Shown: piece after piece, positions 29,238-63,113 of the stretch
Position numbering within the stretch: the first letter of the stretch is position 1
Layout: each line of letters begins with the position of its first letter
Assembly: GCA_043809745.1 (NCBI GenBank)
Contig: JBDROU010000073.1
Coordinates: forward strand, 7,969 to 71,968
Reading direction: 5' to 3'
Source: a bacterium
GTDB taxonomy: Bacteria > Elusimicrobiota > JBDRMW01 > JBDROU01
DNA: 64,000 bases
Notes under the pieces: model-generated
What the model was told of the DNA's origin: nothing
The model's input: the letters and a program-made list of their open reading frames with translations, nothing else
Databases searched by the model: none
Translations under genes and position numbers: made by a program

Positions 29238-30635
29238 TTATATGAGATATTCTTCCTTGTATTCCGGGGTGATTATCTCGCTGGATAAATTTGATTTTAG
29301 TGTTTGCGAAAATTCAACGACTGCGTTTTCTTCGCCGTGCAGCACAAAAATCTTTTTGGGTTTCTTTTTAAAATTGGAGATCCATCTCATAAGTTCATTT
29401 TTATCCGCATGTGCGGAGAAACCGTTTATTTTTTCTATCCGGGCATAAACCGGATAGTTATCTCCCAGGATTCTCACCTTAGCGGGTTTTTCTAGTATCT
29501 CGCGGCCTAATGTCCCTTCAGCCTGATATCCTACGAATAATATAGTGCTCTCTTTGCGGCTGATGTTGTTAATTAGATGGTATTTAATTCTTCCGCCCGT
29601 GCACATTCCGGATCCGGCCATAACGACGGATGTCCTTTTAGCGCTGTTGATGTTTTTCGAATCATTAGCGGTAGGTGTTGTCTTAAGCAGCGGAAAGCTG
29701 AATAACGAATAAGAATTGTTTAAGTGGGTTTGAGCCTCTTTGTCGAAATAACTTGAATATTTCTTAAATACTTCTGTTACGTTAATGGCCATAGGGCTGT
29801 CTACAAAAACGGTAAGTTGGGGAATTTTCTTTTGGCGCAGCAATATGCCCAAACTGTAAATAAGTTCCTGCGCCCGTTCGATTGCAAATGACGGAATTAT
29901 GATGTTGCCGCCGGCTTTGTGAGTTTCTAGGATCACTTTTTGAATTTTTTCAAGTGCGGTACTTTCATTTTCATGAATCCTGTTTCCGTACGTTGATTCC
30001 ATGAAAACGTGATCTGCCTTTTCAAAAAGTGTTGGGTCTTTTAATATAGGACGATTCCATCTGCCGATATCCCCAGAAAATATATAAATTTCACGATTGC
30101 TGCCGCTATCTTTACGCAGTTCAATCATCGCGGAACCGAGAATATGTCCTGCATCGTAAAAAATAGCCCGCAGATCCTTAGTAACAGCGAATTCTTTTTT
30201 ATACGATATCGGCTCAAAAAGCGAAATGGCTTTTTCAGCATCCCGAACAGTGTAAAGAGGGATTTCCGGATATGGGCTTGATGTCCTCTTTTTTCTGTGC
30301 CGTTTTCGTTTGTATTCGATATCTGATTCTTGAAGATGCGCGGAATCAAGCAAGGCAATTTTAGCTATTTCTGCGGTAGGCGGTGTACAGTATATCTTCC
30401 CCCTGTATCCTTCACGAACCAGTTTTGGAAGATAACCGCAATGATCGATATGAGCGTGGGTCAAAAGGACGCATTCTATGTTCCCGGGGTCGATCGGGAA
30501 TTCCTCCCAGTTGCGAGAACGGAATTTTCTTTCCTGATATAGCCCGCAATCAATTAAAATATATTTTCCGTTATTTTCAAGCAGGAATCGGGAGCCGGTT
30601 ACGTTTTTCGCAGCTCCTAAAAATTTAATTTTCAT
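29238..30635 (-). CDS. Beta-CASP family MBL-fold ribonuclease (RNA-metabolising metallo-beta-lactamase)
   Basis: HxHxDH in LLTHAHIDHCG. About 465 aa. Beta-CASP insertion and C-terminal His motifs (FSAHAD). Confidence 0.7.
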   Translation of the reverse strand: MKIKFLGAAKNVTGSRFLLENNGKYILIDCGLYQERKFRSRNWEEFPIDPGNIECVLLTHAHIDHCGYLPKLVREGYRGKIYCTPPTAEIAKIALLDSAHLQESDIEYKRKRHRKKRTSSPYPEIPLYTVRDAEKAISLFEPISYKKEFAVTKDLRAIFYDAGHILGSAMIELRKDSGSNREIYIFSGDIGRWNRPILKDPTLFEKADHVFMESTYGNRIHENESTALEKIQKVILETHKAGGNIIIPSFAIERAQELIYSLGILLRQKKIPQLTVFVDSPMAINVTEVFKKYSSYFDKEAQTHLNNSYSLFSFPLLKTTPTANDSKNINSAKRTSVVMAGSGMCTGGRIKYHLINNISRKESTILFVGYQAEGTLGREILEKPAKVRILGDNYPVYARIEKINGFSAHADKNELMRWISNFKKKPKKIFVLHGEENAVVEFSQTLKSNLSSEIITPEYKEEYLI

Positions 30636-30801: not shown

Positions 30802-32538
30802 ATGAAACCTTCCTTCAAGCTAATTTTGATATATATTCTATTTATGGGCTTTGTTTTTCCTGATAATGTTTTGGGGAAACTTACCGTAAAGATAGAAGGC
30901 ATATCCGGTGAGCTTCTCAATAATGTGCGCGCATACATTTCACTCGAAGAGAAAAAGAATGAGATAACTCTGGACGAAACGGGAATAAAAAAACTCTACA
31001 ATCAAGCACCTCAAGAGATACGGAAGGCGCTGGAAGTTTTCGGTTATTATAGTCCTGAAATAATCTCTAAACTTGAAACTGAAAAAAATGACTGGATAGC
31101 CAAATTTATAATACAACCGGGGTTGCCCGTTATTGTAAAGGAAGTTGATTTTGCAATAACAGGAGAAGGAAAAGAGGATAAAATATTAACCTCATTAATA
31201 GCTGTGATTAAAGCAGGTGATCCGTTTAATCATGGTTTATATGAAAAAACAAAGCGTGTGCTGCTTGATGCAGCGCAGGAACACGGGTTTTTTGATGCTC
31301 ATTTTACTTTGCATAAGGTTAAAATTGACAGAACAGCTAGGGAGTGCGTTATTATTTTATATTTTGATACCGGTCCGAAATATTATTTCGGCCGCGTGCA
31401 ATTCTTTCAAGAGGGATTTGATGATCGATATTTACAGCGTTTTGTTCCATTTAAAGAAGGAGAGCCGTATTCTGCGGATAAGATACTGGCATTACGCAAT
31501 GCTCTAGATATGAGCGAACATTTTACTTCTGTTGATATTTCATTAAGACATGAGCTGCAAACTAACAGAGTGATTCCTGTAAAAATTTCGGGTATTGTAC
31601 GTAAAAAGTATAACGCTACGACCGGTATAGGCTACGGAACCGATATGGGAATGAGAGGTAGTCTCGAGTGGGAAAACCGCAGGGTAGACGGGATGGGGCA
31701 TCGCTTCAAGACCAAGATCCAAGCTTCGCAAATCAGCAAGAGTATACAAGCGAGTTATGATATTCCGCTTTTGTTGCCTCTTACCGATAAGCTTTCGTAT
31801 CAGGCTGGGTTGAGAGAAGAACTTACGGATACCGCCCGTACGAAGACGACAATTGTGGGTGTCAAACGCAGCAAGAAGCTGCGTTCTAGTTGGTTTAATA
31901 CCCTTTTCCTTGATTTCCAGGATGAGTTCTTTACCGTTGCAAACGAAAAAGACAGATCGACACTGGTAATACCGGGTGTAAATTGGACGTATACAAAGGC
32001 TGATGCGCTCCCTTATCCAAAAAAAGGAATGAAGTTGGGTATTGAGTTAAAAGGTTCAGAAAAATATATTGCATCAAGCGTCAGTTTTTTGCAGGCGCAA
32101 ACCAGCGGCAAGATAATTCGGCAACTTTTTGGCGAAAACCGGATATTTATTCGCGGAGAAGCGGGAACGACCGCTGTGAGAGATTTTAACAGCCTGCCGC
32201 CGACTATACGGTTTTTTACCGGAGGCGATAACAGCGTAAGAGGTTTCGGCTATAATGCGCTGGCACCGAAGGACGAAAATGGAAATGTTATCGGAGGGCA
32301 TTCCCTGCTTGTAGGAAGTATCGAGTATGAGATTAAGTTATTTGAGAAATTGCGGATATCGGTATTTTATGATGCAGGAGCTGCGCTTGATGTTTGGAAG
32401 CAATATTTGAATAAGGGAGTGGGTGTGGGTCTAAGGTGGCGTTCCCCGGTCGGCCCTATACGAATCGATCTGGCATTCCCGATAACAGATAAAGAAAGAA
32501 ACTATCGAATTCATTTTAATATGGAGCCGGACTTATGA
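30802..32538 (+). CDS. tamA: TamA-like Omp85-family outer-membrane protein (translocation and assembly module)
   Basis: Signal peptide. 578 aa, consistent with 3 POTRA domains plus a 16-strand barrel. Omp85 barrel motif FFTGGDNSVRGFGY. C-terminal aromatic-rich strand. Overlapping start with the downstream TamB-like gene. Confidence 0.65.
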   Translation: MKPSFKLILIYILFMGFVFPDNVLGKLTVKIEGISGELLNNVRAYISLEEKKNEITLDETGIKKLYNQAPQEIRKALEVFGYYSPEIISKLETEKNDWIAKFIIQPGLPVIVKEVDFAITGEGKEDKILTSLIAVIKAGDPFNHGLYEKTKRVLLDAAQEHGFFDAHFTLHKVKIDRTARECVIILYFDTGPKYYFGRVQFFQEGFDDRYLQRFVPFKEGEPYSADKILALRNALDMSEHFTSVDISLRHELQTNRVIPVKISGIVRKKYNATTGIGYGTDMGMRGSLEWENRRVDGMGHRFKTKIQASQISKSIQASYDIPLLLPLTDKLSYQAGLREELTDTARTKTTIVGVKRSKKLRSSWFNTLFLDFQDEFFTVANEKDRSTLVIPGVNWTYTKADALPYPKKGMKLGIELKGSEKYIASSVSFLQAQTSGKIIRQLFGENRIFIRGEAGTTAVRDFNSLPPTIRFFTGGDNSVRGFGYNALAPKDENGNVIGGHSLLVGSIEYEIKLFEKLRISVFYDAGAALDVWKQYLNKGVGVGLRWRSPVGPIRIDLAFPITDKERNYRIHFNMEPDL

Positions 32539-35500
32539 GCGTAAAAAGATTTTTTCTGTTTATGGCGATTTTGTGTACCGTGGTTCTGCTTGGTTTTGTG
32601 TTTGTTTTCTTTACTGAGACGGGAACACGAATAGTGATAAATACTGTACTTGCAAAATTTATCCAAAATGCACATGCGGAAAAAATATCAGGTAAATTCG
32701 GCAGATTTATAAACCTGCAGAAATTTGCCTATGAAGACGATAATTATATTATAAAAGCTGAAGAAATTTCTATAACTTGGCGGCCTTTCATGCTCATAAA
32801 AAAGAAGCTTGTTGTTTCGCAATGCAAAGGAAAGTCAATATCAGTTATCAAAAAATCGAATGCGCCAAAAGAAGTAAAATTATCAGAAGAGAAGGAAGTT
32901 AAAGTGCTTCCATTGCAAGTTCAAGTGGATGATTTGGATTTTATTAAGGTGTCTTTTTCCGAAAATGGCACTAGCATTTTTGCTGAAAATTTATCAATAT
33001 CCGGCATGTTGAATATGGACGATTTTCGAGTTACTGCAGGCTGGAGGAATGCTCATATAGAAAGAAGTCTCAAGGCTATAGCGGCGAGTGTTGAGGGAGA
33101 TCTGCAAGCTCAGGGGACACTCGCTGTATATACTGTAGAAGGCATGTGCGCATTTTCAGGTGAATTTGTACCGGATGCGCGCTTAAAGTTCAAAGCGAAT
33201 GGAACCGGTAAAGGTATATCACTAGAGAAACTAGCCGTAGACACTTTAGACGGCAGTATAACCGGAGAGGGGTCGGTTGCGTGGATGCCGGAATTAGCAT
33301 GGGACTTAAATTTATACGCTAAACGGTTGTTACTTGAGAAAAAATGGGATAATCTTCAGGGGATTATAAGCTTTGGTTGCAGTACTAAGGGTGTATCCGG
33401 GCAAAAGATTAATGGTATTTTCTTAATTAAAGATATTGAGGGATCGATGCAGCATCAGCAGCTTAAAGGCAGTGCTCGAATCGAAATTAAAGATAATTAT
33501 ATTGTTAATAGTCTGATAAAAATCAATGCCGGAGAGGCTAAGTTATTTCTTAAAGGCGGGGCAGCTGCTTTATGGGATCTCGTATGGGAAATAAATATAC
33601 CCAGTTTGTCAAAATTGCTGAGAGAAAGCAAAGGGCTTATTATTGGCAGCGGTTCAATTTTGGGAGAGAGAAATAAGCCGCAGATTCAAGGTACGCTTTA
33701 TGCTGAGCAAGTCTCAATCATGAATGCCGGTGTTGCCCGATCGCGGACTGAGTTTTTTCTTGATATGTCGAAAATGCGGACATCGACTTTCAGATGCTTT
33801 TGCGACAATTTAAATTATGGGGATACAGTAATCAAGGAGGTGTCGCTTGATGCGCAAGGCAGTGAGACAAACCATGAAATTAAGCTGAATTTAATTCAAA
33901 ACAATTATACAGCTCGCATTGTGTTTGTTGGGGGATACAATTATAAACTATGGGAAGGCAAAATTTCACAGGCAGAAATAAGCAGCGATCGTTTTGGTTT
34001 GTGGAATCTGCGGGATGCGGCTCGTTTAAGCATTTCCCGGGATCAGCAATTAATTGATGGTATATGCATGATGCAAAATGATTCAGAGATATGCGGTAAT
34101 TTGTTTCGCAGCAACTCGGGAGCCTTAAATCTGCAAGGCACAATTTCACGATTACCGCTTACAGTTTTTGAAACGTGGTATCCGGAATCTTTGAATGCAT
34201 CGGGTTTGGTGCAAGGTTTATTTGAATATAAGGCTGATCGCGGTTTTCACAGCGCCCATGTCCAGCTGACTTCGGAAAAAGGTTCTGTGTCGTACGAATC
34301 TCAAAAACAAAAACTAACATCATTGAATTATTCAAATGCGGATGTTGAAGTTCTTTCAGATAACGATAAGTTGAAGGCAAATATTACTGCTAATTTAGCA
34401 GATGGTGATAATGCGGACATTTCTCTTGAAATGACTCCATTTAATACCGGACCCGGGTTTGGCAAAAACAATTTAAATGGTAAGGTAAATATAAAATTGA
34501 GCAAGCTTGAGTTTGTTTCATCATTTGTGCCTTATCTAACAGATGTTTCGGGGATTCTTGTTGTTAATGCCGACATAACCGGTACAGTGAGCCAGCCAGT
34601 TATAACCGGGCTTGCGCAGATCGAGAAAGGGATGGCAAATTTAAGACAGATCGGTATAAAACTAAGTAATGCGGGAATTAAGTGTAATGCCGGTCAGGAT
34701 CAGCATATAGATTTTTTAGTCGTTTCGGAATCGGGAACCGGGAACTTAAAGGCAGAAGGCAGCGCGGTATATACAAAATTGCCGCTTGAGTATCTGGATA
34801 CTTCGATTAATGGCAATCTATTTGAGCTGATTAATCTGCCTGAGTTGCAGTTAATCGTATCGCCGAAACTGAACGCAAAATATTTTGACAATAAATTTGA
34901 TATTTCAGGTAATGTAGCTATACCAAAAGCAAAACTTACAATTCCTGAAATAAAGGCGGGAGCGGTTCCAACTTCTGATGATGTAGTGTTTGAAGACGAA
35001 AAAGAAGAACAGAGCAAAAGGAAGAGAGCTTTTTATTCAGATATGCGGATTGATGTAAAGGTAACGTTCGGCGATAATGTGGTTTTCGAAGGTTACGGTT
35101 TGAAAGCAAAAATATATGGAAATTTGAGACTCATTCAAGAAGCAGGCAAAAGTACACTTGCCCAAGGGGAGCTCCGTGTTGCGGAAGGTTCGTATACGGC
35201 ATATGGCCAAAAACTAAAAATAATTCAAGGGAAAGTCATTTTTGAAGGTCCGGTCACTAACCCTGAAATTGATGTAAAAGCAATACGTCAAACAGGTTCT
35301 GTAGTTGCGGGTATTCGAGTAACAGGCATGCTTCGCTCGCCGCAAATAACGCTTTTTAGCGAGCCAGCGATGTCTCAGGCAGATATGCTTTCCTACCTCC
35401 TTTTGGGGAGACCTCTGAAGCAGGCTTCGACGAAAGAAGGAAGACACCTCACTAATGCAATTGCGGTGCTGCAGCTTGCGGGAGGCCAGCAGCTCACAAA

Positions 35501-35741
35501 ATATATAGGCAGATATTTTGGATTAGAGGAAATTCAGTTTGAAAGTTCTCCCTCAACAGGTGAAACAAGCCTAATATTAGGCAGGCCAATAACATCAAAA
35601 CTGTATATGAACTACGTCATGACGCCGTTTAGTACAGGAGCTGCAATCAGGTTCAGGTATTATGTAAATCCAAAACTTACGCTTCAAGCAGAAAGCGGTC
35701 AATTAAGCGGAATGGATGCTTTATTTAACTTTGATTACTAG
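32535..35741 (+). CDS. tamB: TamB-like inner-membrane-anchored translocation/assembly protein (DUF490 C-terminus)
   Basis: 1068 aa. N-terminal signal-anchor. Long beta-rich repetitive body. C-terminal DUF490-like segment. ATGA-coupled to tamA. Confidence 0.6.
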   Translation: MSVKRFFLFMAILCTVVLLGFVFVFFTETGTRIVINTVLAKFIQNAHAEKISGKFGRFINLQKFAYEDDNYIIKAEEISITWRPFMLIKKKLVVSQCKGKSISVIKKSNAPKEVKLSEEKEVKVLPLQVQVDDLDFIKVSFSENGTSIFAENLSISGMLNMDDFRVTAGWRNAHIERSLKAIAASVEGDLQAQGTLAVYTVEGMCAFSGEFVPDARLKFKANGTGKGISLEKLAVDTLDGSITGEGSVAWMPELAWDLNLYAKRLLLEKKWDNLQGIISFGCSTKGVSGQKINGIFLIKDIEGSMQHQQLKGSARIEIKDNYIVNSLIKINAGEAKLFLKGGAAALWDLVWEINIPSLSKLLRESKGLIIGSGSILGERNKPQIQGTLYAEQVSIMNAGVARSRTEFFLDMSKMRTSTFRCFCDNLNYGDTVIKEVSLDAQGSETNHEIKLNLIQNNYTARIVFVGGYNYKLWEGKISQAEISSDRFGLWNLRDAARLSISRDQQLIDGICMMQNDSEICGNLFRSNSGALNLQGTISRLPLTVFETWYPESLNASGLVQGLFEYKADRGFHSAHVQLTSEKGSVSYESQKQKLTSLNYSNADVEVLSDNDKLKANITANLADGDNADISLEMTPFNTGPGFGKNNLNGKVNIKLSKLEFVSSFVPYLTDVSGILVVNADITGTVSQPVITGLAQIEKGMANLRQIGIKLSNAGIKCNAGQDQHIDFLVVSESGTGNLKAEGSAVYTKLPLEYLDTSINGNLFELINLPELQLIVSPKLNAKYFDNKFDISGNVAIPKAKLTIPEIKAGAVPTSDDVVFEDEKEEQSKRKRAFYSDMRIDVKVTFGDNVVFEGYGLKAKIYGNLRLIQEAGKSTLAQGELRVAEGSYTAYGQKLKIIQGKVIFEGPVTNPEIDVKAIRQTGSVVAGIRVTGMLRSPQITLFSEPAMSQADMLSYLLLGRPLKQASTKEGRHLTNAIAVLQLAGGQQLTKYIGRYFGLEEIQFESSPSTGETSLILGRPITSKLYMNYVMTPFSTGAAIRFRYYVNPKLTLQAESGQLSGMDALFNFDY

Positions 35742-35836
35742 GGACATGCATTGTGCGATTCTTTAGTAATTAATAGTTTTACTTTTTAATGAATTTAATA
35801 TGTTATAATTGCCAATATAAAAAAGATAACGGATTC

Positions 35837-36622
35837 TTACCCCAGCACTTTTCTTAATTTCTTAAATCTTTCATATATATCTTGTCTTAAGTTATCAACA
35901 TATTCATCAATTCCATTTTCCTCTTCTACCAAAAGACAGCCTTTACTGGAAATCCTTTCAAAAAACATATTAATATTTTCTGAAACGCTCTTTAGGTATT
36001 CTCTTTTTCTATAGGCAGATATTTCTTCTAAAATCGCGCCAATATCTGGTGCATATCGTAAAATAAAATAGATGTAATACAAATCTTTTGCCTGCTTTTC
36101 TATATTATCCCTTTCGATAAAAGTTGCTCCTTTATGGTACAAAAAAGCTGATGGTTTTGGGCAATTAACTAGATAGGTCTTTTTATTTTTCAAATAGTGA
36201 ATCTTTATCGAAATCCGGTGTTTCAGGAGAAAATCAAATTTATCGATTTTGTTTATATGTATCTGGCTGCCCACCATTTTTTTGATTGCATTAATATCCG
36301 CTGCAGGATAAGTAATAAATTCTACCGGGATTTTTTCCTTTTGCAACACAACTGGGAATATCTTGCCTATTTCCATATGACGCTCTTTGTAATTTAAAGA
36401 AGAAAGAGCTTCAAAAATCGTCTTCGGGTAGTCACTGGAAATTGATTGATCTACACCAAAATCAATATCAACAGTAGTAACCGGTTTTCTAACAACAGTT
36501 TTCCAAAGAAAGTTTGAGTAAATATGAGGTATCCATCCACCAACAAGCGTAAGGTTGGGAAGGTAATCGTTAATGTCTTCAAGCACACTAAAAAATACTG
36601 ATTCAATCTTTTTAAGATTCAT
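35837..36622 (-). CDS. Minimal nucleotidyltransferase-fold protein, candidate AbiEii-like toxin
   Basis: N-terminal Gly motif LTLVGGWIPHIY and acidic pair TVDIDFGV (hG[GS]...DxD of pol-beta superfamily NTases). Second gene of a two-gene minus-strand cassette, overlapping the upstream gene by 11 nt. Confidence 0.45.
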   Translation of the reverse strand: MNLKKIESVFFSVLEDINDYLPNLTLVGGWIPHIYSNFLWKTVVRKPVTTVDIDFGVDQSISSDYPKTIFEALSSLNYKERHMEIGKIFPVVLQKEKIPVEFITYPAADINAIKKMVGSQIHINKIDKFDFLLKHRISIKIHYLKNKKTYLVNCPKPSAFLYHKGATFIERDNIEKQAKDLYYIYFILRYAPDIGAILEEISAYRKREYLKSVSENINMFFERISSKGCLLVEEENGIDEYVDNLRQDIYERFKKLRKVLG

Positions 36623-37298
36623 ACAAATCCTTACCTTTTTCCTCCAGAATCTGCTTTAAGTACTCAGCATGTTCTTGCCCGCGGGGGATAAAATTATATA
36701 GATCCAAGTAGAGTTGGAGGTTAGAAACAACTTTGTATCCCTTTATCATTTGTACATTATAGAATATGCTTTTCTTGTAATGTGGTAAAATAATATGAAT
36801 ATTGCCGCCTCTTACAAGCTCCTTCAAATCAAGGTGCTGGCAAAAATTCAAAAAATCCTTGTTCCATATTTCATGACTAAAATATAAATATACGTGGTCC
36901 GTTATTACAAAGGAAGTCGTCAAATTGGCGCCTGAATGGAGAGTGAGTGCATAGGGCTTGCTTTTTAAGTAGTCTTTAATCTTTGGTAAGATATTTTTAT
37001 TTGGTGAATAATATGTGCTGACTTTATTTAATTCAAAACGATATGCCCTTAACCAAGCATTCACTAAATCCTGTTTGCTTGTAAGGAGCGCATAACTATC
37101 TGGACCACGCTTAACACGCTCTATGTAGCCTCTTTTTGCCATGGTCTCAAGTACTCCGTGAGCCATACCCAGGCTTACGCCATTTTTATCTGTAAAATCA
37201 CGTGTTACCCATTTCTTATTCGGACTAGCCAGCATTTTTCTCAAAATCAAAGACGCTTTGTCAGCAAAAATATTCCGCAAAATATTTGAACTACTCAT
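36612..37298 (-). CDS. Winged-HTH DNA-binding protein, candidate AbiEi-like antitoxin/autoregulator
   Basis: N-terminal wHTH (LILRKMLASPNKKWVTRDFTDKNGVSLGMAHGVLETMAKRGYIERVKRG). RBS AAGGAG 8 nt before the ATG at 37298 (rc); the 37307 GTG of the ORF track is less likely. Confidence 0.45.
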   Translation of the reverse strand: MSSSNILRNIFADKASLILRKMLASPNKKWVTRDFTDKNGVSLGMAHGVLETMAKRGYIERVKRGPDSYALLTSKQDLVNAWLRAYRFELNKVSTYYSPNKNILPKIKDYLKSKPYALTLHSGANLTTSFVITDHVYLYFSHEIWNKDFLNFCQHLDLKELVRGGNIHIILPHYKKSIFYNVQMIKGYKVVSNLQLYLDLYNFIPRGQEHAEYLKQILEEKGKDLYES

Positions 37299-37299
37299 A

Positions 37300-37365
37300 A
37301 TGTTCACTCCTTATATATGTTCACTGTATAGTGAACATTATATACTAAGTAAACATTGTTGTCAA
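37300..37365 (-). promoter_or_regulatory. Consensus sigma70 promoter (TTGACA-17-TATAAT on minus strand) with palindromic operator ATGTTCACT-N4-AGTGAACAT plus a third half-site overlapping RBS/start
   Basis: Minus-strand TTGACA is rc of 37360-37365, TATAAT is rc of 37337-37342, exact 17-nt spacer. Perfect 9-bp inverted repeat at 37317-37338. Extra half-site at 37300-37308. Confidence 0.6.
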
Positions 37366-37699
37366 GGAGTTTAATGGTCTGTGTATAAGTCGAGGTCGGA
37401 GTTGGGAGATCATGTTTGGTTTGACATTAAAGTGAGCATAACCTGTCCTGAATATAGTCTAAGGGGAGAGGTGCCTCCTTTGATTGAAAAGAAAAATAAT
37501 TTTTAATTTGCCAAAAATAAAGATGTCAAAATAAAGCTTAACCTTTAATTGATAAATTTGCTAGAATCTTCTACAAAATCAGCCAGTGTTAAGTTCTTAT
37601 TTTCTGGCATAACCGCATAGAAAGAAAAAAACAAATATGTATGCCCGAAATGCGGTCAGTAAATTGGAATGACAAAATGAAGTTTTAAAAGGGGGTAAA

Positions 37700-40090
37700 A
37701 TGCCTGCAATACGAGAGAGAAAAGTAACATCAAGCGCATCAAAAGAGCTTTTAGAGCGTATAAATCGGTACTGGATGGCTGCTAATTATTTGTCAGTAGG
37801 TCAGATTTATCTCATGGATAATCCCTTGCTCGCAGAAGAGCTGAAAAAGGAACATATAAAGCCTAAACTGCTTGGGCATTGGGGCACAACACCGGGTCTT
37901 AACTTTATATATGTTCATCTAAATAGAATTATAAAAGAGGAGGATTTAAATGTACTTTATTTAACAGGTCCTGGTCATGGCGGCCCTGCTCTTGTTGCGA
38001 ATACATATCTGGAAGGGACATACAGTGAATTTTATCCTGAGATCTCCCAGGACGCTGAAGGCATGAGAAAACTCTTCAAGCAGTTCTCTTTTCCCGGAGG
38101 TATTTCAAGCCATGTAGGACCTGAAACACCGGGGTCCATACACGAAGGAGGGGAACTCGGTTACGCGCTGTCACATGCATTTGGGGCCGCGTTTGATAAT
38201 CCCGATCTGATCGTTGCTTGTGTTATAGGTGACGGGGAAGCTGAGACAGGCCCTCTTGCCACCGCCTGGCATTCAAATAAATTCTTGAACCCGATTAATG
38301 ATGGAGCGGTACTGCCGATACTGCACCTTAACGGCTATAAAATAGCAAATCCAACCATTCTTGCAAGAATAAGCGGCGAAGAACTGGAGTCTTTATTCAA
38401 GGGATATGGGTATAAACCGTATTTTGTTGAAGGTTCAGACCCTCAAGAGATGCACAAGCGTATGTTTGAGACTATGGATATGGTTGTGGATGATATAAAA
38501 ACAATTCAAAACAATGCCCGTACAAAGGGGTTTCAAGGAAGACCCCGGTGGCCGATGATTGTTCTTAGGACCCCGAAGGGATGGACAGGACCGAAAGAAG
38601 TAGACGGAAAAAAAACAGAGGGTTATTGGAGAAGTCATCAGGTGCCTTTTGCGGAGTTGGATACTAATCCAAATCATCTCAGACTTCTGGAAGATTGGTT
38701 GAAGAGCTATAAGCCCGAAGAGCTATTCGACGCACAGGGTGCTCTGCGCACGGAATTGGCAGAGCTTGCTCCAACAGGTATTCGACGGATGGGTGCAAAT
38801 CCCCACGCAAATGGAGGTGCGTTATTAAAGGATTTGAGACTACCTGATTTCCGTACGTATGCTGTTGAATTTACTCAGCCAGGTTCGGTTCTGAAAGAAG
38901 CGCCTCGTGTTATGGGGGGGTTCTTGAGGGATGTGATGAAAATGAACAGCAAGCAGAAAAACTTTCGTGTGGTTGGACCGGATGAAGTTAATTCAAATAG
39001 GCTGGGAGCTTTGTTCGAAGTTACCAACAGAACGTGGCTGGGTGAGATTCTCCCTGAGGATGACCATCTAGCACCTGACGGGCGGGTGATGGAGATCTTA
39101 AGCGAGCATACCTGCCAGGGTTGGCTTGAAGGATATATTCTTACGGGCAGGCACGGTTTATTCACTTCATATGAAGCTTTTATTCATATAATCGATTCGA
39201 TGTTTAATCAACATGCAAAATGGCTTAAAATAACCCGTAATGAAATTCCCTGGAGAAGACCGTTAGCTTCTTTGAATATACTTCTCTCCTCTCATGTATG
39301 GCATCAGGATCACAACGGCTTCAGCCATCAGGATCCCGGATTTATTGATCATGTGGTAAATAAGAAAGCGGAAGTTGTGCGCGTGTACTTTCCGCCTGAT
39401 GCAAATACGCTGCTTTCAGTCACCGACCATTGTCTTCGCAGCAAACATTATGTGAATGTTATTGTTACCGGTAAAAAGGAGCAGCCGCAATGGCTTTCAA
39501 TGGAAGATGCCATTAAGCACTGCACATCGGGTTTAAGTATCTGGGAATGGGCTAGCAACGATAAGGGATCGGAACCCGATGTGGTTATGGCATGCTGTGG
39601 CGATGTGCCGACGCTTGAGGTGCTGGCGGCTGTTAAGATACTGATGGCATATGATCCGGAACTTAAGATTCGTGTAGTTAATGTGGTTGATCTCATGACA
39701 CTGCAGCCTAAATATACGCATCCTCACGGTTTTTCAGATAAAGATTTTGATATCATCTTTACTAAAGATAAACCGATTATATTCGCTTATCACGGATATC
39801 CGACGCTTATTCACCGGCTTACCTACAAAAGAACAAATTACAGAAATTTACATGTGAGGGGTTACAAAGAAGAAGGTACGATTACAACATTTTTTGATAT
39901 GCTTGTAAGGAATGATCTGGATCGCTTTCATTTAGTGGGTGATGTGGTTGATCGTGTTCCCAAATTGGGATCTAAGGCAGCATACATTAAACAAGCAATT
40001 CGTGAAAAGTTGATCGAACACAAAGAATATATAAGAAAACACGGTGAGGATATGCCTGAGATCCTTAATTGGAAGTGGAACAATAAGTAA
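37700..40090 (+). CDS. xfp: Xylulose-5-phosphate/fructose-6-phosphate phosphoketolase
   Basis: 796 aa. Diagnostic N-terminal [16 protein letters not shown]-binding GDGE region. RBS AAAGGGGG. Confidence 0.9.
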
Positions 40091-40197
40091 TAGGTCAAAA
40101 GCATTTCTTACGGGGCTGTAAATGAATAATATACAAGAAAGTATGACAGAACTAAGTATAGAACCAATTGATTATATTTCTAAGGAATAAAAATTTT

Positions 40198-42366
40198 ATG
40201 AGCGAGAAACGGTTTGGAGCATTTGAAGGCGTATTTACACCGACGATTTTAAGCATACTCGGCGTTATCATGTATTTGCGCCTGGGGTGGGTGGTAGGCA
40301 ATGTCGGACTGCTAATGGCAGTTGTCATTATATGTCTGAGCAACGTAATAACAATAGCAACCGGTCTTTCGATATCGAGCATTGTCACCAATATAAATGT
40401 TGGGGCTGGCGGCGCGTATTCGGTTATTTCAAAATCATTCGGGTTGTCGCTTGGCGGTGCTGTTGGAATACCGCTTTATATTGCGCAGGCGGTCTCTGTT
40501 GCGTTTTATATTACCGGTTTTGCAGAATGTTGGGCGTGGGTGTTCCCGGCTCACAATATGTTGTTTGTATCACTTACACTTTGGATAATTTTGCTTGTTG
40601 TTACCTATGTAAGTGCGCGGATTGCTTTTCGGATGCAGTATGCTATTATGGCTATCATTGTGCTGTCGCTGGTTTCCATATTTCTCGGGAAACCTGTTGC
40701 CGCTGCAGTTGTATCTGTACATACTGAGCCGGTAGCTCGGTTGGGCTTCTGGGTAGTATTTGCTGTGTTCTTTCCAGCGGTTACCGGGATACTTGCGGGT
40801 ACGAGCATGTCCGGTGAATTGGAAAAGCCCGAACGGGCGATACCCATTGGGACGCTTTCTGCGATTTTCTTAAGTTTTCTTATATATATTGCGGTGGCAT
40901 ACTGGTTTTCTGCGGTTGGGACCCAACAAGAACTCATTGCAAATACGAATATAGTTGTTGAAAAAAGCAGATGGCAGATTATAGTCGTTCTGGGTATAAT
41001 GGGTGCGACCCTCTCTTCCGCGCTTTCAATGTTTGTTGCTTCACCCCGTACGCTCCTGGCGCTTGGGAAGAACAGAACGGTGCCGTTTTGGCGGGGATTC
41101 GCGCATGTCAATAAGCGTGGCGAGCCATCGATAAGTATCATTGTTACTGCGTTGATTGCAGCTGGAACGTTGTTTCTGGGTACTCTGGATACGATAGCCA
41201 CGTTTCTGACCATGATTTTTTTGGTGACGTATGGGCTTATCAATGTGGCAGTTTTAGTTGAGCAGAGTATTGGTATAGTAAGCTTTCGGCCGTCGTTGAG
41301 ATTTCCTGTGCTGACGCCTTTTGTAGGGTTTGTCGGCTGTCTGCTAGTAATGTTTCTGATTAACTGGAAAGCAAGCGTGATAGCGTGCGCTGTGATAGCA
41401 GCAATATATATGATCTTAATCCAAAAAGAATCGGGCCGATACTGGCCGGATATTCGGAAAGGTTTTTTCATCCATGTTGCGGAGCAGTCTCTTAAAGCAG
41501 CAGATCGGTTTCCATATTACCCGAAGATTTGGAAGCCGAATGTGCTCATTCCGGTGAAGAAGGTTCGCCTCTGGCCGGGTCTTATGAACTTGATTAACGG
41601 ATTATGCCTACCATCAGGAAGAGTCACATTTTTCACCATAGTTGAGAAAAAATCGAATGGACAAATGTTGAATGGCACTGAATCAAAAATGCGGAGTAAC
41701 GGACCGGTTGTCGGAGATGTGGAAGACGACTTAAAGTCTGTAAGCGTGTCGCTTCAGGAGAAAGGGCTTTTGGTCTCTCATGCTGTGGTTGAATCACCCA
41801 GATTTATTGACGGTTTTCAGGCGGTTGTTCAAAGCCTTCGAGGTTCGTTTTTCCCGCCGAATGTACTTTTTGTCAAAGCCGGTTCTACGTCGTCAAGCGA
41901 TGCGGAGCTTGAGGAAATTTTTAAGCGGGTGAAACAGATGAATATGGGCATCATCATCTTTAAATCGCATCCTGAGAAAGGATTCGGGGAACAGCGTGTC
42001 ATCAATGTGTGGATACGCACGTTAAGCGGTAATGTCGGTCTCTCAATATTGGCGGCGTTACAGCTTGAGAGAAACTGGGATGGTGTACTTCGCCTCTCCC
42101 ACGCGATCTGTGAGGAAAAGAGCAGGAGTAGTGTCTATGAATACCTTTCTCGTTTGAAGGAAAGCTTCCGACTTCCAAAGGACACTGAAATACAGATTCT
42201 TGTCGGTTCGTTTGAGGAGGCATTCAAGCACGTAGCTCCTGCGGACGTAAATATATTTGGGCTTAGCGATGACATACGCCTTGCTTTCGTGAGATCTATT
42301 TCTGAAAAGATTGACACCGCTGCCATATTTGTAAAAGATTCAAAACAAGAAAGCATCAATGCATAG
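40198..42366 (+). CDS. SLC12-like cation:chloride cotransporter homologue (APC superfamily permease with large cytoplasmic C-terminal domain)
   Basis: N-terminus GAFEGVFTPTILSILGVIMYLRLGWVVG closely resembles the SLC12 TM1 signature. 12 TM helices plus a roughly 250-aa soluble tail. RBS AAGGA places the ATG at 40198. Confidence 0.55.
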   Translation: MSEKRFGAFEGVFTPTILSILGVIMYLRLGWVVGNVGLLMAVVIICLSNVITIATGLSISSIVTNINVGAGGAYSVISKSFGLSLGGAVGIPLYIAQAVSVAFYITGFAECWAWVFPAHNMLFVSLTLWIILLVVTYVSARIAFRMQYAIMAIIVLSLVSIFLGKPVAAAVVSVHTEPVARLGFWVVFAVFFPAVTGILAGTSMSGELEKPERAIPIGTLSAIFLSFLIYIAVAYWFSAVGTQQELIANTNIVVEKSRWQIIVVLGIMGATLSSALSMFVASPRTLLALGKNRTVPFWRGFAHVNKRGEPSISIIVTALIAAGTLFLGTLDTIATFLTMIFLVTYGLINVAVLVEQSIGIVSFRPSLRFPVLTPFVGFVGCLLVMFLINWKASVIACAVIAAIYMILIQKESGRYWPDIRKGFFIHVAEQSLKAADRFPYYPKIWKPNVLIPVKKVRLWPGLMNLINGLCLPSGRVTFFTIVEKKSNGQMLNGTESKMRSNGPVVGDVEDDLKSVSVSLQEKGLLVSHAVVESPRFIDGFQAVVQSLRGSFFPPNVLFVKAGSTSSSDAELEEIFKRVKQMNMGIIIFKSHPEKGFGEQRVINVWIRTLSGNVGLSILAALQLERNWDGVLRLSHAICEEKSRSSVYEYLSRLKESFRLPKDTEIQILVGSFEEAFKHVAPADVNIFGLSDDIRLAFVRSISEKIDTAAIFVKDSKQESINA

Positions 42367-43614: not shown

Positions 43615-44679
43615 TTACAGCCATTTTTTCTTTCTGAAAAATAAGATCAATGCCATTCCAATTCCCAAAAACAGGATCCAAACAGCGATATAACCGTATT
43701 CCCATTCCAGTTCTGGCATATATTTAAAATTCATGCCGTAAATACCTGCAATGAAAGTGAGTGGAATGAAAATTGTGGCAATGATTGTTAGTACTTTCAT
43801 AATTTCGTTCATTCTGTTGCTGACACTTGATAGATAGATGTCAATCATCCCGGAAACCATATCGCGGTGGGTTTCGATCGTATCAAGTATTTGGATTGTA
43901 TGTTCGTATAAATCTCTGATATATAGCTTAGTTGCTTTTTTTATGAGTGTGGAATCTGAACGCTCTAATTTTACGACTACCTCCCGCAAAGGCCATATGG
44001 ATTTTCGAAGCATGATCAAATCATGTTTAATAGTATAAATTTTATTTAACGTTCGGTGCGTTGGGTTCGATAAGAGTTCAATTTCGATTTCTTCAATCCC
44101 GTCATTAAGTTCTTCCAAGACCACAAAATAGTAGTCGATGATTATATCAACAAGCGAATAGAGAAGGTAGTCTGCTTCCAATTTTCTTGTTCTCCATTTT
44201 GAATTCTTGATGCGCTCCCGAATGGGGGCAAAGAGGTCGTCTATGTGCTCCTTAAAAGAAAAGACGAGATTTTTTCCCAGCAGCAAACTGATTTGTTGAG
44301 AGTTTAGTTCATGGGTATCTTTGTTGTAAGAAAAAGCAGCTAATACAATAAAGAGATACTTTTCAAGGTCATCAAATTTAGGGCGATGGGAAGTATTGTG
44401 TATGTCTTCCAAAATAAGGGGATGCAGTTCGAGGTTTTGCCCGAGTTTCTCTAAAACGGGAACAGTATTAAGATTTTCAATATTTATCCAGGTGGTGGTA
44501 GTGGATTTGAGAAGCGGAAAACTTTCTTCGATTGTGCCAATTTCTTCATCTGTGAATTTTTTTTCATCAAAATCAACAACAGTGATTCGAGAAGATTCAG
44601 CTTTTTTTTCAATCGCAGGCATAAGCGTGCCTGGCTCGAGTCCTGCTTTTTTTGTGAATTTATTAAAAAATAATTTCAT
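43615..44679 (-). CDS. corA: CorA-family magnesium/cobalt transporter
   Basis: 354 aa. Two C-terminal TM helices with the GMN motif (YGMNFKYMPEL). Acidic N-terminal cytoplasmic domain. Confidence 0.85.
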   Translation of the reverse strand: MKLFFNKFTKKAGLEPGTLMPAIEKKAESSRITVVDFDEKKFTDEEIGTIEESFPLLKSTTTTWINIENLNTVPVLEKLGQNLELHPLILEDIHNTSHRPKFDDLEKYLFIVLAAFSYNKDTHELNSQQISLLLGKNLVFSFKEHIDDLFAPIRERIKNSKWRTRKLEADYLLYSLVDIIIDYYFVVLEELNDGIEEIEIELLSNPTHRTLNKIYTIKHDLIMLRKSIWPLREVVVKLERSDSTLIKKATKLYIRDLYEHTIQILDTIETHRDMVSGMIDIYLSSVSNRMNEIMKVLTIIATIFIPLTFIAGIYGMNFKYMPELEWEYGYIAVWILFLGIGMALILFFRKKKWL

Positions 44680-47409: not shown

Positions 47410-47745
47410 GTGAGTAAGTTACTTGCAACACTGCTGATGGCGGTAGTTTTGGGAATGTTTTCTTCATGTAATCCGGCCGAAGAAAATGAAGTGAACATTA
47501 AGGGCGATGAATCGATTGAACAGGAATCATACCCTCAGTGGGAATCGGAAATAGATTCCTCAGAAGCTGATGAGAAGGACAATGAATCGATTGATTATGA
47601 ATCTTACCCCGAGTCGGAATCGGAAATAGATTCCTCAGAAGAATACGATGAAGAGGGGGTTGCTTCCGAAGAGGAGTCCGAAGAAGACGAAGAAGACTTG
47701 TCTGCAGATGAAAAGATTGTGCCCCAGAAGGTTATTGAGAAATAA
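47410..47745 (+). CDS. Highly acidic putative lipoprotein with two 25-aa tandem repeats
   Basis: RBS AAGGAGG 8 nt before the GTG at 47410. Signal peptide ending in a lipobox-like FSSC. Mature protein more than 40% D/E/S. Repeat (E/N)ESI(E/D)..ESYP..ESEIDSSE appears twice. Confidence 0.5.
   Translation: MSKLLATLLMAVVLGMFSSCNPAEENEVNIKGDESIEQESYPQWESEIDSSEADEKDNESIDYESYPESESEIDSSEEYDEEGVASEEESEEDEEDLSADEKIVPQKVIEK
47506..47655 (+). repeat. Two tandem copies of a roughly 75-bp coding repeat inside the acidic lipoprotein gene
   Basis: gatgaatcgattgaa...gaatcataccctcagtgggaatcggaaatagattcctcagaag (47506-47566) against aatgaatcgattgat...gaatcttaccccgagtcggaatcggaaatagattcctcagaag (47581-47641); cores about 90% identical. 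Confidence 0.7.
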
Positions 47746-62000: not shown

Positions 62001-63113
62001 TTAGAATGATTCATTGTAGAAGAAATAAAATGCGTTGGCTTCATCGCCGGATTCGGTTGAGTTTACCGCAAAATCTAGTCTGATGTTGATATTTTCTTTG
62101 GAGTTTACCGTGTATCTAATTCCTAAGCCCCCTGCTTTTTTCATGCCCTTAAACAATCTATCGCTGAAAACAGGCGCAACCTGAGCAAAGCCGCCGAACA
62201 GCACTAATCCTAAGCGTTCATAGATTGGGGTGCGGTATTCGCTCTGAATCCCAAAAAAGTGCTTATCCCTGTATCTTCCTGAGGTATACCCTCTGAGAAG
62301 TGAGCTTCCTCCAAGAAATGGAAGGTTTTGAAACGGCACATTACCTTTGCAACTGTCCACAATTCCATTAATGCCAACTACCTGTTTCCCGGTTATATTA
62401 ATAAAATGCTTGGCATTAAGGTGCAGTTTTTTGTAATCATTGTCGCTGCCTAACCAATCTTCATAAGAAATAATCTCAAGATTTATAAGAGAACCGCTTA
62501 AAGTATAAAATACATTGTCACGGGTGTCCATGCTTACCGAAAATCCAATTCCGGAAGAGCGGTCTGAACCGCTGCCGACCACGAGATTGTTCTCAAGTTT
62601 ACCACCTCGTTCTTTATCAGAGATTGTATATTTATCAAAATCAAACAGCGCCCCGATATACAAATTATCAGTTATTCCTTTTGCAGCGCCCAGTTTTATA
62701 GAAACGCTGTGAGAAGTATAATCTTCTTTCATAGAAAAAGTTGTATCTGGGCCTATCCCGTAAAAACTATCCGGGAATTTGGATAATTTGATTTTATTCT
62801 TAAACCTCCACGATCCATCGAGCTTATAAATTGTGCTGTCAAGTACAGCAATTATCTGATTCTCCTGAGTAATTAACAAAGGCCCCTGAATAGTATCAGG
62901 TTTGTTATCTGCGACTCCTTTGTCTCTAACCAATATGCCTAGAATACCTAATCCAGTTTTTGTATCAGGAGAGTAGAAAAATACCGGTATGAATATCTTG
63001 TCCCAAGATGATTTGGTATTTCCTTGCTTTTCAAAATTAGCAGCGAAACATATGTGCGGTAATAAAGTTATTATAATTAAAACAATGATATTTAATAAAC
63101 GAATCGCTTTCAT
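62001..63113 (-). CDS. Barrel-only (POTRA-less) Omp85-family outer-membrane protein
   Basis: Signal peptide. Omp85 barrel motif LGGSSLLRGYTSGRY (compare tamA GGDNSVRGFGY in this window). Alternating amphipathic strands. C-terminal ...FYFFYNESF. Only 370 aa, too short for POTRA domains. Confidence 0.5.
   Translation of the reverse strand: MKAIRLLNIIVLIIITLLPHICFAANFEKQGNTKSSWDKIFIPVFFYSPDTKTGLGILGILVRDKGVADNKPDTIQGPLLITQENQIIAVLDSTIYKLDGSWRFKNKIKLSKFPDSFYGIGPDTTFSMKEDYTSHSVSIKLGAAKGITDNLYIGALFDFDKYTISDKERGGKLENNLVVGSGSDRSSGIGFSVSMDTRDNVFYTLSGSLINLEIISYEDWLGSDNDYKKLHLNAKHFINITGKQVVGINGIVDSCKGNVPFQNLPFLGGSSLLRGYTSGRYRDKHFFGIQSEYRTPIYERLGLVLFGGFAQVAPVFSDRLFKGMKKAGGLGIRYTVNSKENINIRLDFAVNSTESGDEANAFYFFYNESF

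Follow-up and report, generated by a model that had tools for sequence, protein, structure and literature searches.

Gene organization of the locus

Analysis of a 64,000-nucleotide stretch of an Elusimicrobiota genome (contig JBDROU010000073.1 of assembly GCA_043809745.1; hereafter the window, whose first letter is position 1) reveals two minus-strand open reading frames (ORFs) in the interval between the stop codon of tamB (35741) and the start codon of xfp (37700). They encode a protein with a predicted winged helix-turn-helix (wHTH) and a nucleotidyltransferase (NTase), and together form the cassette described here, a probable toxin-antitoxin (TA) type module related to AbiE. A first-pass annotation, made from the letters of the window alone, had placed such a two-gene minus-strand cassette between tamB and xfp; both ORFs are indeed present, and domain analysis of the flanking genes identifies TamA (Omp85 + POTRA_TamA), TamB (PF04357) and the phosphoketolase Xfp (all three XFP domains). 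The elements of the interval are the following:

35837-36622, minus strand: NTase gene (ORF call), 261 aa, putative toxin
36612-37298, minus strand: wHTH/AbiEi_2 gene, 228 aa from ATG, putative antitoxin and autorepressor
36612-36622, minus strand: 11-nt overlap between the wHTH stop and the NTase ATG, read directly from the sequence
37307-37312, minus strand: ribosome-binding site (RBS) AAGGAG of the wHTH gene, of which AGGAG is kept in related loci
35742-35836, no strand: spacer separating the stop codons of the convergent tamB and NTase genes, 95 nt, 24% GC

The mechanical ORF call for the wHTH gene (36612-37307, 231 aa) begins at a GTG. Translation almost certainly begins instead at the ATG of position 37298, which yields a protein of 228 aa, because the AAGGAG lies 8 nt upstream of it and the partner genes are 228 aa long in nearly all homologous loci. 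The 11-nt overlap with the NTase gene, already reported in the first-pass annotation, is real and recurs at two of the related loci described below (L001 and L002), and at the remaining ones the two genes abut or overlap. A candidate RBS of the NTase gene, AAGGA, is found at 36632-36628, 5 nt before its ATG; together with the overlap, this makes it probable that the two genes are translationally coupled. The spacers on either side are AT-rich, as had been noted (24% GC for the one following the NTase gene and 33% GC for 37299-37699, vs. 38.6% for the whole window). The first of them (35742-35836) contains neither a convincing intrinsic terminator after the NTase gene nor a third gene, and an Rfam scan of positions 35000-38500 gave no match.

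The two ORFs have 422 and 1241 database homologues, and comparison with the closest homologue gives dN/dS ratios of 0.16 (wHTH gene) and 0.20 (NTase gene), at nearly equal dS values (0.47 and 0.49). The genes are therefore genuine and not chance ORFs; both are intact in the window and, by these ratios, under purifying selection.

Promoter and putative operator

Upstream of the wHTH gene lies a sigma-70 promoter that matches the consensus at 12 of 12 positions, and the region between its -35 box and the ATG contains four copies of a short motif, TGTTCAC:

37337-37365, minus strand: sigma-70 promoter, with -35 TTGACA at 37365-37360, a 17-nt spacer and -10 TATAAT at 37342-37337
37299-37357, minus strand: putative operator, in which four TGTTCAC half-sites make up two nested inverted repeats
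37355-37349, minus strand: half-site 1, in the promoter spacer
37337-37331, minus strand: half-site 2, abutting the -10 box
37324-37318, minus strand: half-site 3, forming with half-site 2 the perfect palindrome GTTCAC-N6-GTGAAC
37307-37301, minus strand: half-site 4, in the RBS-ATG interval

The half-sites are centred at -54, -36, -23 and -6 relative to the ATG. The first two have one orientation and the last two the opposite one, which gives nested inverted repeats sharing one dyad. The GTG at 37307, taken as start codon by the mechanical call, lies inside half-site 4 and overlaps the RBS. The palindrome GTTCAC-N6-GTGAAC is unique within the window, and the exact octamer ATGTTCAC occurs four times in the 64 kb, three of these within a 39-bp stretch of the operator. 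The fourth ATGTTCAC, at 47491-47498, stands alone, as a half-site lacking an inverted partner, and gives no reason to assume a second operator of the wHTH protein in the 64 kb.

We further aligned the upstream regions of 41 related loci with that of the window (42 loci in total). The conserved columns of this alignment mark both promoter boxes (-35 and -10), all four half-sites, the RBS and the start codon. The half-sites are the most conserved non-coding columns of all, and conservation ends directly upstream of the -35 box. As synonymous sites are saturated between most loci (dS > 1), this non-coding conservation reflects selection. The half-sites extend over the spacer of the promoter, its -10/start region and the stretch from RBS to ATG, and since such a layout over promoter and RBS is what autorepression predicts, it points to the wHTH protein repressing its own promoter through these sites.

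The upstream protein

The 228-residue protein passes the Pfam gathering threshold for AbiEi_2 (PF09952) with 27.2 bits vs. 21, its residues 75-219 aligning with profile positions 2-139 of 143; PF09952 corresponds to COG4861 (PMC7251935). An identical protein (P0121) carries the NCBI name 'type IV toxin-antitoxin system AbiEi family antitoxin'. In the AlphaFold2 (AF2) model the N-terminal residues 14-71 adopt a helix-helix-helix-strand-strand arrangement with pLDDT values of about 70-80, for a whole-model mean of only 60, and weak MarR and PADLOC AbiEi matches fall within the same region (residues 21-68). When this low-confidence wHTH model was submitted to Foldseek, all matches were winged-helix regulators, none of them significant (E >= 0.02).

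The nucleotidyltransferase

The NTase, an enzyme of the Pol-beta fold, passes the threshold of PF12281 (NTP_transf_8) with 40.5 bits vs. a cutoff of 26.3, covering profile positions 19-200 of 218, and an identical protein (P0001) is named 'GSU2403 family nucleotidyltransferase fold protein' by NCBI. Among 63 diverse relatives, 57 match PF12281 and 7 also match AbiEii. The family is small: a search of 1.84 billion cluster representatives recovers 364 representatives at E <= 1e-3. AF2 models the NTase with high confidence (pLDDT 92.6, pTM 0.90). Its single significant match in the PDB, as found by Foldseek, is Pb27 (5uvd; E 4e-4, probability 1.00, TM-scores 0.41 and 0.48, 14% identity), and the lower-ranking fold matches include aminoglycoside NTases and terminal uridylyltransferases.

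The residues of interest in the NTase are G28-G29, T50, D52, D54, E101, K164, R171, K179 and D180. The hGG…DxD signature pointed out in the first-pass annotation reads V27-G28-G29-x22-D52-I-D54 and corresponds to motifs I and II of AbiEii/DUF1814, hG[GS]-x(9-15)-DhD, with a longer spacer. In an alignment that reaches down to 20% identity, G28, G29, D54, K164 and D180 are invariant, and W30, Y35, T50, D52, F102 and K179 are conserved at 90% or more; R171 is invariant among close homologues. For comparison with AbiEii of S. agalactiae, the sequence of the latter was taken from the PDB alignment of 9hlo_B and numbered according to the published residues. The corresponding segments are:

Catalytic strand: T49-T50-V-D52-I-D54-F in the NTase, S64-T65-V-D67-I-D69-F in AbiEii
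Motif III and start of motif IV: K164-x6-R171-x7-K179-D180 in the NTase, K173-x6-R180-x7-K188-D189 in AbiEii

The NTase thus has the Lys and the Arg of motif III at the same seven-residue distance as AbiEii, and the Lys-Asp pair of motif IV is in register, the distance from Arg to Lys being eight residues in both proteins. In AbiEii, D67 and D69 are catalytic and T65 is the phosphoacceptor. The Ser/Thr position that serves as phosphoacceptor in proteins of the AbiEii/MenT type (T65 in AbiEii, S78 in MenT3, T39 in MenT1) is occupied in the NTase by T50, which in the AF2 model is found at the end of the loop 40-52, just ahead of the strand 53-57 and two residues before D52. The presence of this conserved threonine makes a type VII autophosphorylation mode plausible for the NTase. 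A MNT/HEPN pair, which the first-pass annotation had listed among the families to be searched, was rejected: the partner is a wHTH/AbiEi_2 protein, and the Pfam output contains no HEPN or MNT family at E values up to 1.

Distribution and probable mobility of the cassette

A screen with the NTase alignment, in which each species was represented by a single genome, identified 45 related loci (numbered here with an L). The majority are from Omnitrophota, others from Aminicenantes, Planctomycetia, WOR-3, Elusimicrobiota, Thermodesulfobacteriota, Krumholzibacteriia, Actinomycetota, Atribacterota and Spirochaetes, about ten phyla in all. The binning of short contigs in metagenome-assembled genomes (MAGs) may mislabel taxa, but many of these loci are on contigs of 30-250 kb. 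The order of the two genes put forward in the first-pass annotation is kept throughout, a wHTH gene being found directly upstream of the NTase gene in 41 of the 41 loci for which upstream sequence is available.

The copies from these phyla are 64-86% identical and have unrelated flanks. The closest one has 86% DNA identity and wholly different flanks, and the proteins share 64-75% identity with those of copies in Omnitrophota, Planctomycetia, Aminicenantes, WOR-3 and others. In blastn comparisons with 47 loci, homology starts at 37340-37377 and stops at 35843-35913 wherever both ends are present, which delimits the following unit:

35837-37372, minus strand: conserved, horizontally shared unit from the -35 box to the NTase stop, about 1.53 kb

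Neither terminal repeats nor a recombinase were found at its ends. The neighbours of the cassette vary widely, the 141 flanking ORFs representing 147 Pfam families, and a few of them are other TA-type genes (Fic, HicB, HEPN, AAA_14/DUF4143).

It had been proposed that the cassette is a mobile-acquired module, and the copies in different phyla with unrelated flanks agree with this, whereas base composition does not contribute to it and was dropped as evidence, since the cassette is no outlier within the window (GC/GC3 z-scores of -1.65 for the NTase gene and -0.6 for the wHTH gene). The evidence for acquisition is indirect. Apart from an identical MAG protein, no TamB homologue of the tamB product (32535-35741) exceeds 26% identity in a collection of 5.8 billion proteins, and scanning the GTDB species with TamB, each represented by one genome, brought up no relative; from these two results the lineage of the window is very poorly sampled. 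A cassette that is 86% identical elsewhere, next to a tamB gene whose product has homologues of at most 26% identity, is the best available evidence and indirectly supports horizontal acquisition. The opposite view, that the cassette has long resided in the tamB-xfp interval by vertical inheritance, could draw on its unremarkable GC and GC3, on the lack of an integrase, a transposase, a tRNA or flanking repeats as insertion signature in the window flanks (the flanking inverted repeats being AT-rich matches at chance level), and on the lack of any related genome in which an empty tamB-xfp site might be seen. Vertical residency is nevertheless distinctly unlikely in view of the 86% nucleotide identity to a copy with different flanks, the 64-75% protein identity across phyla next to the much more divergent TamB, and homology boundaries that match the promoter and the stop codon. 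With 64-86% identity among mostly uncultured bacteria of about ten phyla, the cassette is therefore a marker of recent gene flow between them.

On the Omnitrophota contig L002, which carries a 73%-identical copy of the cassette, two more AbiE-like pairs are found within 6 kb (L002:9631-11251 and L002:12822-13803). In the first a 257-aa ORF precedes a PF08843 AbiEii protein (284 aa), in the second a 106-aa ORF precedes another PF12281 NTase (226 aa), so that this contig contains a small island of NTase toxin modules with differing upstream partners.

As regards the window itself, the two genes had been described as the only ones on the minus strand in a long plus-strand run. They are not the only minus-strand genes in the vicinity, since a beta-CASP RNase gene (29238-30635) and the ORFs 43615-44679 and 62001-63113 share this orientation; the cassette is the sole minus-strand pair within 30.8-43.3 kb. 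A 288-aa ORF at 40605-41471 (minus strand) is probably spurious, a shadow of the cation-chloride cotransporter-like permease gene (40168-42366) within which it lies antisense.

Decay of the NTase gene

The wHTH gene is intact in all of the 41 loci (41/41). The NTase gene, on the other hand, is disrupted in four:

L038:1147-1719, C-terminus of the NTase replaced after about residue 192
L042:6001-6778, frameshift in an A-run
L045:6001-6384, truncation after residue 128
L047:6001-6589, deletion of residues 89-144

Decay of the NTase gene alone would be expected if the NTase were harmful without its partner, the loss of a toxin being tolerated.

Proposed function and mechanism

Taken together, we consider it likely that the cassette is a self-contained, autoregulated bicistronic module of the TA type, belonging to the AbiE/MenAT superfamily and, within it, to a branch that combines PF09952/COG4861 with PF12281. 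In the model that we propose, both genes would be expressed as one translationally coupled transcript from the consensus sigma-70 promoter, and the winged helix of the 228-aa protein would bind the four TGTTCAC half-sites and thereby repress its own operon. The AbiEi_2 C-terminal domain would neutralise the NTase, most likely in the type VII manner, by docking over its active site and provoking autophosphorylation of Thr50; it may also simply block that site. Once freed, the 261-aa NTase would add nucleotides to the 3' end of an RNA, most likely the acceptor (CCA) end of tRNA, and this activity would stop translation and growth, leading to addiction and/or abortive infection.

This model draws on recent work on related toxins. 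MenT1, MenT3 and AbiEii have been reported to be silenced by an antitoxin-induced autophosphorylation of the Ser or Thr before the catalytic strand (2024 paper; 10.64898/2026.01.19.700257). In the case of AbiEii the silencing is reversed by a phosphatase in vitro, and a host-encoded phosphatase has been proposed for the AbiE system of S. agalactiae (2026 preprint, 10.64898/2026.01.19.700257). The same 2026 preprint (10.64898/2026.01.19.700257) reclassifies AbiE as type VII, and the 'type IV' label of the cassette is probably outdated. It is by analogy with these systems that we infer toxicity, an RNA target, a mode of neutralisation and an anti-phage role for the cassette. Phage defence is the part that we put forward most tentatively, because PADLOC makes no call, searches of phage, plasmid and IMG/VR collections did not find the cassette, and AbiE of S. 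agalactiae gave no protection.

Several observations weigh against a TA module of this kind. The NTase misses the gathering threshold of the AbiEii family PF08843 (21.4 bits vs. 22.5, E 2.6e-4), with an alignment that is co-linear (NTase residues 49-213 to profile positions 33-195 of 238). The PADLOC AbiE models call neither protein; a profile search against PDB chains returns AbiEii 9hlo_B at E 0.48 and MenT1 8an4 at E 1.2; and comparison of the NTase family by HHalign with AbiEii of L002 and of S. agalactiae is not significant, the catalytic strand alone being aligned, or the alignment being out of register. No MenT or AbiEii chain is found among the top 50 Foldseek matches. Within the NTase itself, the spacer from GG to DxD is 22 residues, vs. 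15 in AbiEii, and motif IV reads K179-D180-L-Y-Y183, where the counterpart of AbiEii D192 is the invariant Tyr183. As for the partner, the C-terminal domain of the antitoxin is modelled poorly (pLDDT 60), and this model therefore lends no structural support to a mode of toxin engagement. Decay in four NTase genes vs. none of the wHTH genes is a small-numbered asymmetry and only suggestive, and the frameshift of L042, located in an A-run, could be an assembly error. Finally, the cassette has no matches in the phage, plasmid and IMG/VR collections, AbiE of S. agalactiae did not protect against 32 coliphages, and the literature searched holds no experimental study of a PF12281 member or of a COG4861 antitoxin.

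Other searches gave a similar picture: phmmer and two profile searches found no significant link from the NTase to solved structures, BLASTP of the NTase against AbiEii yielded E 0.22, and PADLOC and NCBIfam added nothing significant for the pair. Since the profile comparison with AbiEii and MenT1 is by itself non-significant, the NTase is, as far as sequence comparison can place it, a remote sister of AbiEii outside PF08843. The AbiE-like identity first assigned to the pair thus stands as regards the AbiEi_2 domain (PF09952), whose threshold is passed, and the relatedness of the families, but not as regards the families named at the time: the NTase belongs to PF12281, and the pair is not one of PF13338 and PF08843 (21.4 vs. 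22.5 bits).

Some of these points would suit a different reading as well, in which a transcription factor is paired with a non-toxic NTase of the stress or resistance kind (ANT-type), modifying a small molecule, a protein or RNA, with no TA relationship between the two. The replacement of the essential D192 of AbiEii by Tyr, the sub-threshold match to PF08843 and the missing PADLOC call all go in this direction, as does the fold comparison, in which Pb27 is the sole significant match and aminoglycoside NTases and terminal uridylyltransferases are among the low-ranking ones; indeed, the DUF1814 superfamily contains non-TA members, namely ANT(2'')-Ia and Pb27. We nevertheless regard a non-toxic NTase as improbable. 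Its partner bears an AbiEi_2 C-terminal domain besides the wHTH, the pairing is obligate and translation overlaps, and decay is found in the NTase gene only. Moreover, the promoter and the two genes move between phyla without cargo or substrate genes, and the predicted tight autorepression from a consensus promoter is a typical TA layout.

A downstream phosphatase in some relatives

Having retained the TA-type module as the likely interpretation, we now turn to a third gene that accompanies the pair in 12 of the 45 related loci. It encodes a metallophosphoesterase of the PPP family (~229-235 aa), on the same strand and 5-11 nt past the NTase stop codon, which matches PF00149, contains GDIHG…GDVCDG motifs and gives weak ApaH, PrpA-like and Ser/Thr-phosphatase matches. 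The copies are 68-86% identical among themselves and are located at:

L004:6796-7485 (= L002:8796-9485)
L005:2158-2847
L007:5971-6678
L008:6509-7198
L012:1666-2361
L014:3398-3916
L016:6795-7304
L017:6795-7484
L020:6275-6982
L043:568-867
L044:399-1088
L023:4323-4391 (partial)

In the window no phosphatase match is found, and the corresponding position is taken up by the 95-nt spacer only. The two-gene form is also that of about three quarters of the loci, including the closest relative, L003. In the literature searched we found no report of a wHTH-NTase-phosphatase arrangement. Because reversible toxin phosphorylation has newly been reported for AbiEii, a phosphatase encoded in the operon is a natural candidate re-activator of the NTase.

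Two further readings take this gene into account. In the first, the PF09952/PF12281 branch would be mechanistically distinct, combining Tyr in place of the motif IV Asp with a phosphatase as re-activator, and the two-gene form of the window would use a host phosphatase. We hold this to be unlikely; were it true, the Tyr of motif IV would imply an altered chemistry or a different substrate, and the phosphatase would strip the inhibitory autophosphate from Thr50, resulting in a three-component circuit of 'toxin, antitoxin, re-activator'. In the second, the copy in the window would be a reduced or domesticated three-gene system, its NTase permanently silenced for want of the phosphatase and acting as an addiction remnant or a regulator. 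The occurrence of the phosphatase behind the NTase gene in 12 of 45 loci and not in the window fits with such a reduction, as does the reversal of AbiEii silencing by a phosphatase in vitro. Yet a reduced system is very improbable here: about three quarters of the loci, L003 among them, are likewise two-gene, both genes of the window are intact and under purifying selection, and a host phosphatase could substitute, as proposed for S. agalactiae. The three-gene relatives with their in-line phosphatase provide a natural test of the proposed switching of toxins by reversible autophosphorylation.

Comparison with known systems

The closest structural neighbour of the NTase, Pb27 of Paracoccidioides brasiliensis (5uvd), is an NTase-like protein of the DUF1814 superfamily, listed as such in the AbiE literature, and the sole significant structural match; unlike the NTase of the cassette, it comes from a fungus and lacks an antitoxin partner. 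The MenAT systems furnish the mechanistic model applied to the cassette. The MenT toxins of M. tuberculosis (MenT1, MenT3 and MenT4) extend the 3' ends of tRNA and so block translation (PMC7450476, PMC11375011); they are NTases of the DUF1814 superfamily and share with the NTase a Ser or Thr phosphoacceptor just before the catalytic Asp, their antitoxins being diverse. In contrast with the cassette, MenA1 has no wHTH, and the NTases show no detectable sequence match (E = 1.2 for MenT1 8an4).

The reference for AbiE are the AbiEi/AbiEii pairs of L. lactis and S. agalactiae, which consist of a COG5340 antitoxin and a DUF1814/COG2253 NTase (Dy et al. 2014, PMC3985639). The cassette resembles them in being bicistronic with the antitoxin gene first, in the predicted composition of the antitoxin (an N-terminal wHTH followed by a C-terminal neutralising domain) and in the inverted repeats of its promoter, as required for negative autoregulation; AbiEi is known to autoregulate negatively at two inverted repeats of its own promoter (Dy et al. 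2014, PMC3985639). At the level of the NTase, the GG…DxD motif is present, the K-x6-R and K-D motifs have the spacing found in AbiEii, and the catalytic strand [ST]TVDIDF is near-identical, including the Thr that AbiEii autophosphorylates. On the other hand, the antitoxin of the cassette belongs to PF09952/COG4861 whereas that of AbiE belongs to COG5340/PF13338, the NTase is a PF12281 protein below the threshold of PF08843, and it has no significant sequence-profile or Foldseek match to 9hlo_B. The operators differ as well, four nested 7-bp half-sites in the cassette vs. two 23-bp repeats in AbiE. Moreover, motif IV ends in Tyr in the NTase, whereas in AbiEii both toxicity and GTP binding depend on D192, the last Asp of the +DxxD motif IV (Dy et al. 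2014, PMC3985639).

The antitoxin of the cassette belongs to the branch of the COG4861-COG4849 pairs. COG4861 has been predicted to be a second AbiEi-like class of antitoxins paired with NTases, and the association of COG4861 with COG4849 reaches 99% in STRING (Dy et al. 2014). The cassette is already annotated by standard pipelines, and its class of gene pair was predicted by Dy et al. 2014; for the host genome it matters little, as one more horizontally spread module of the addiction or defence type. For the COG4861/PF12281 branch, the comparative data propose T50 as candidate phosphoacceptor, bring out a clear deviation in motif IV and yield an operator model built on four TGTTCAC half-sites. 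The cassette and the COG4861-COG4849 pairs have in common an antitoxin of the same family encoded before a predicted NTase, and differ in that the partner NTase belongs here to PF12281 and not to PF08843/COG4849.

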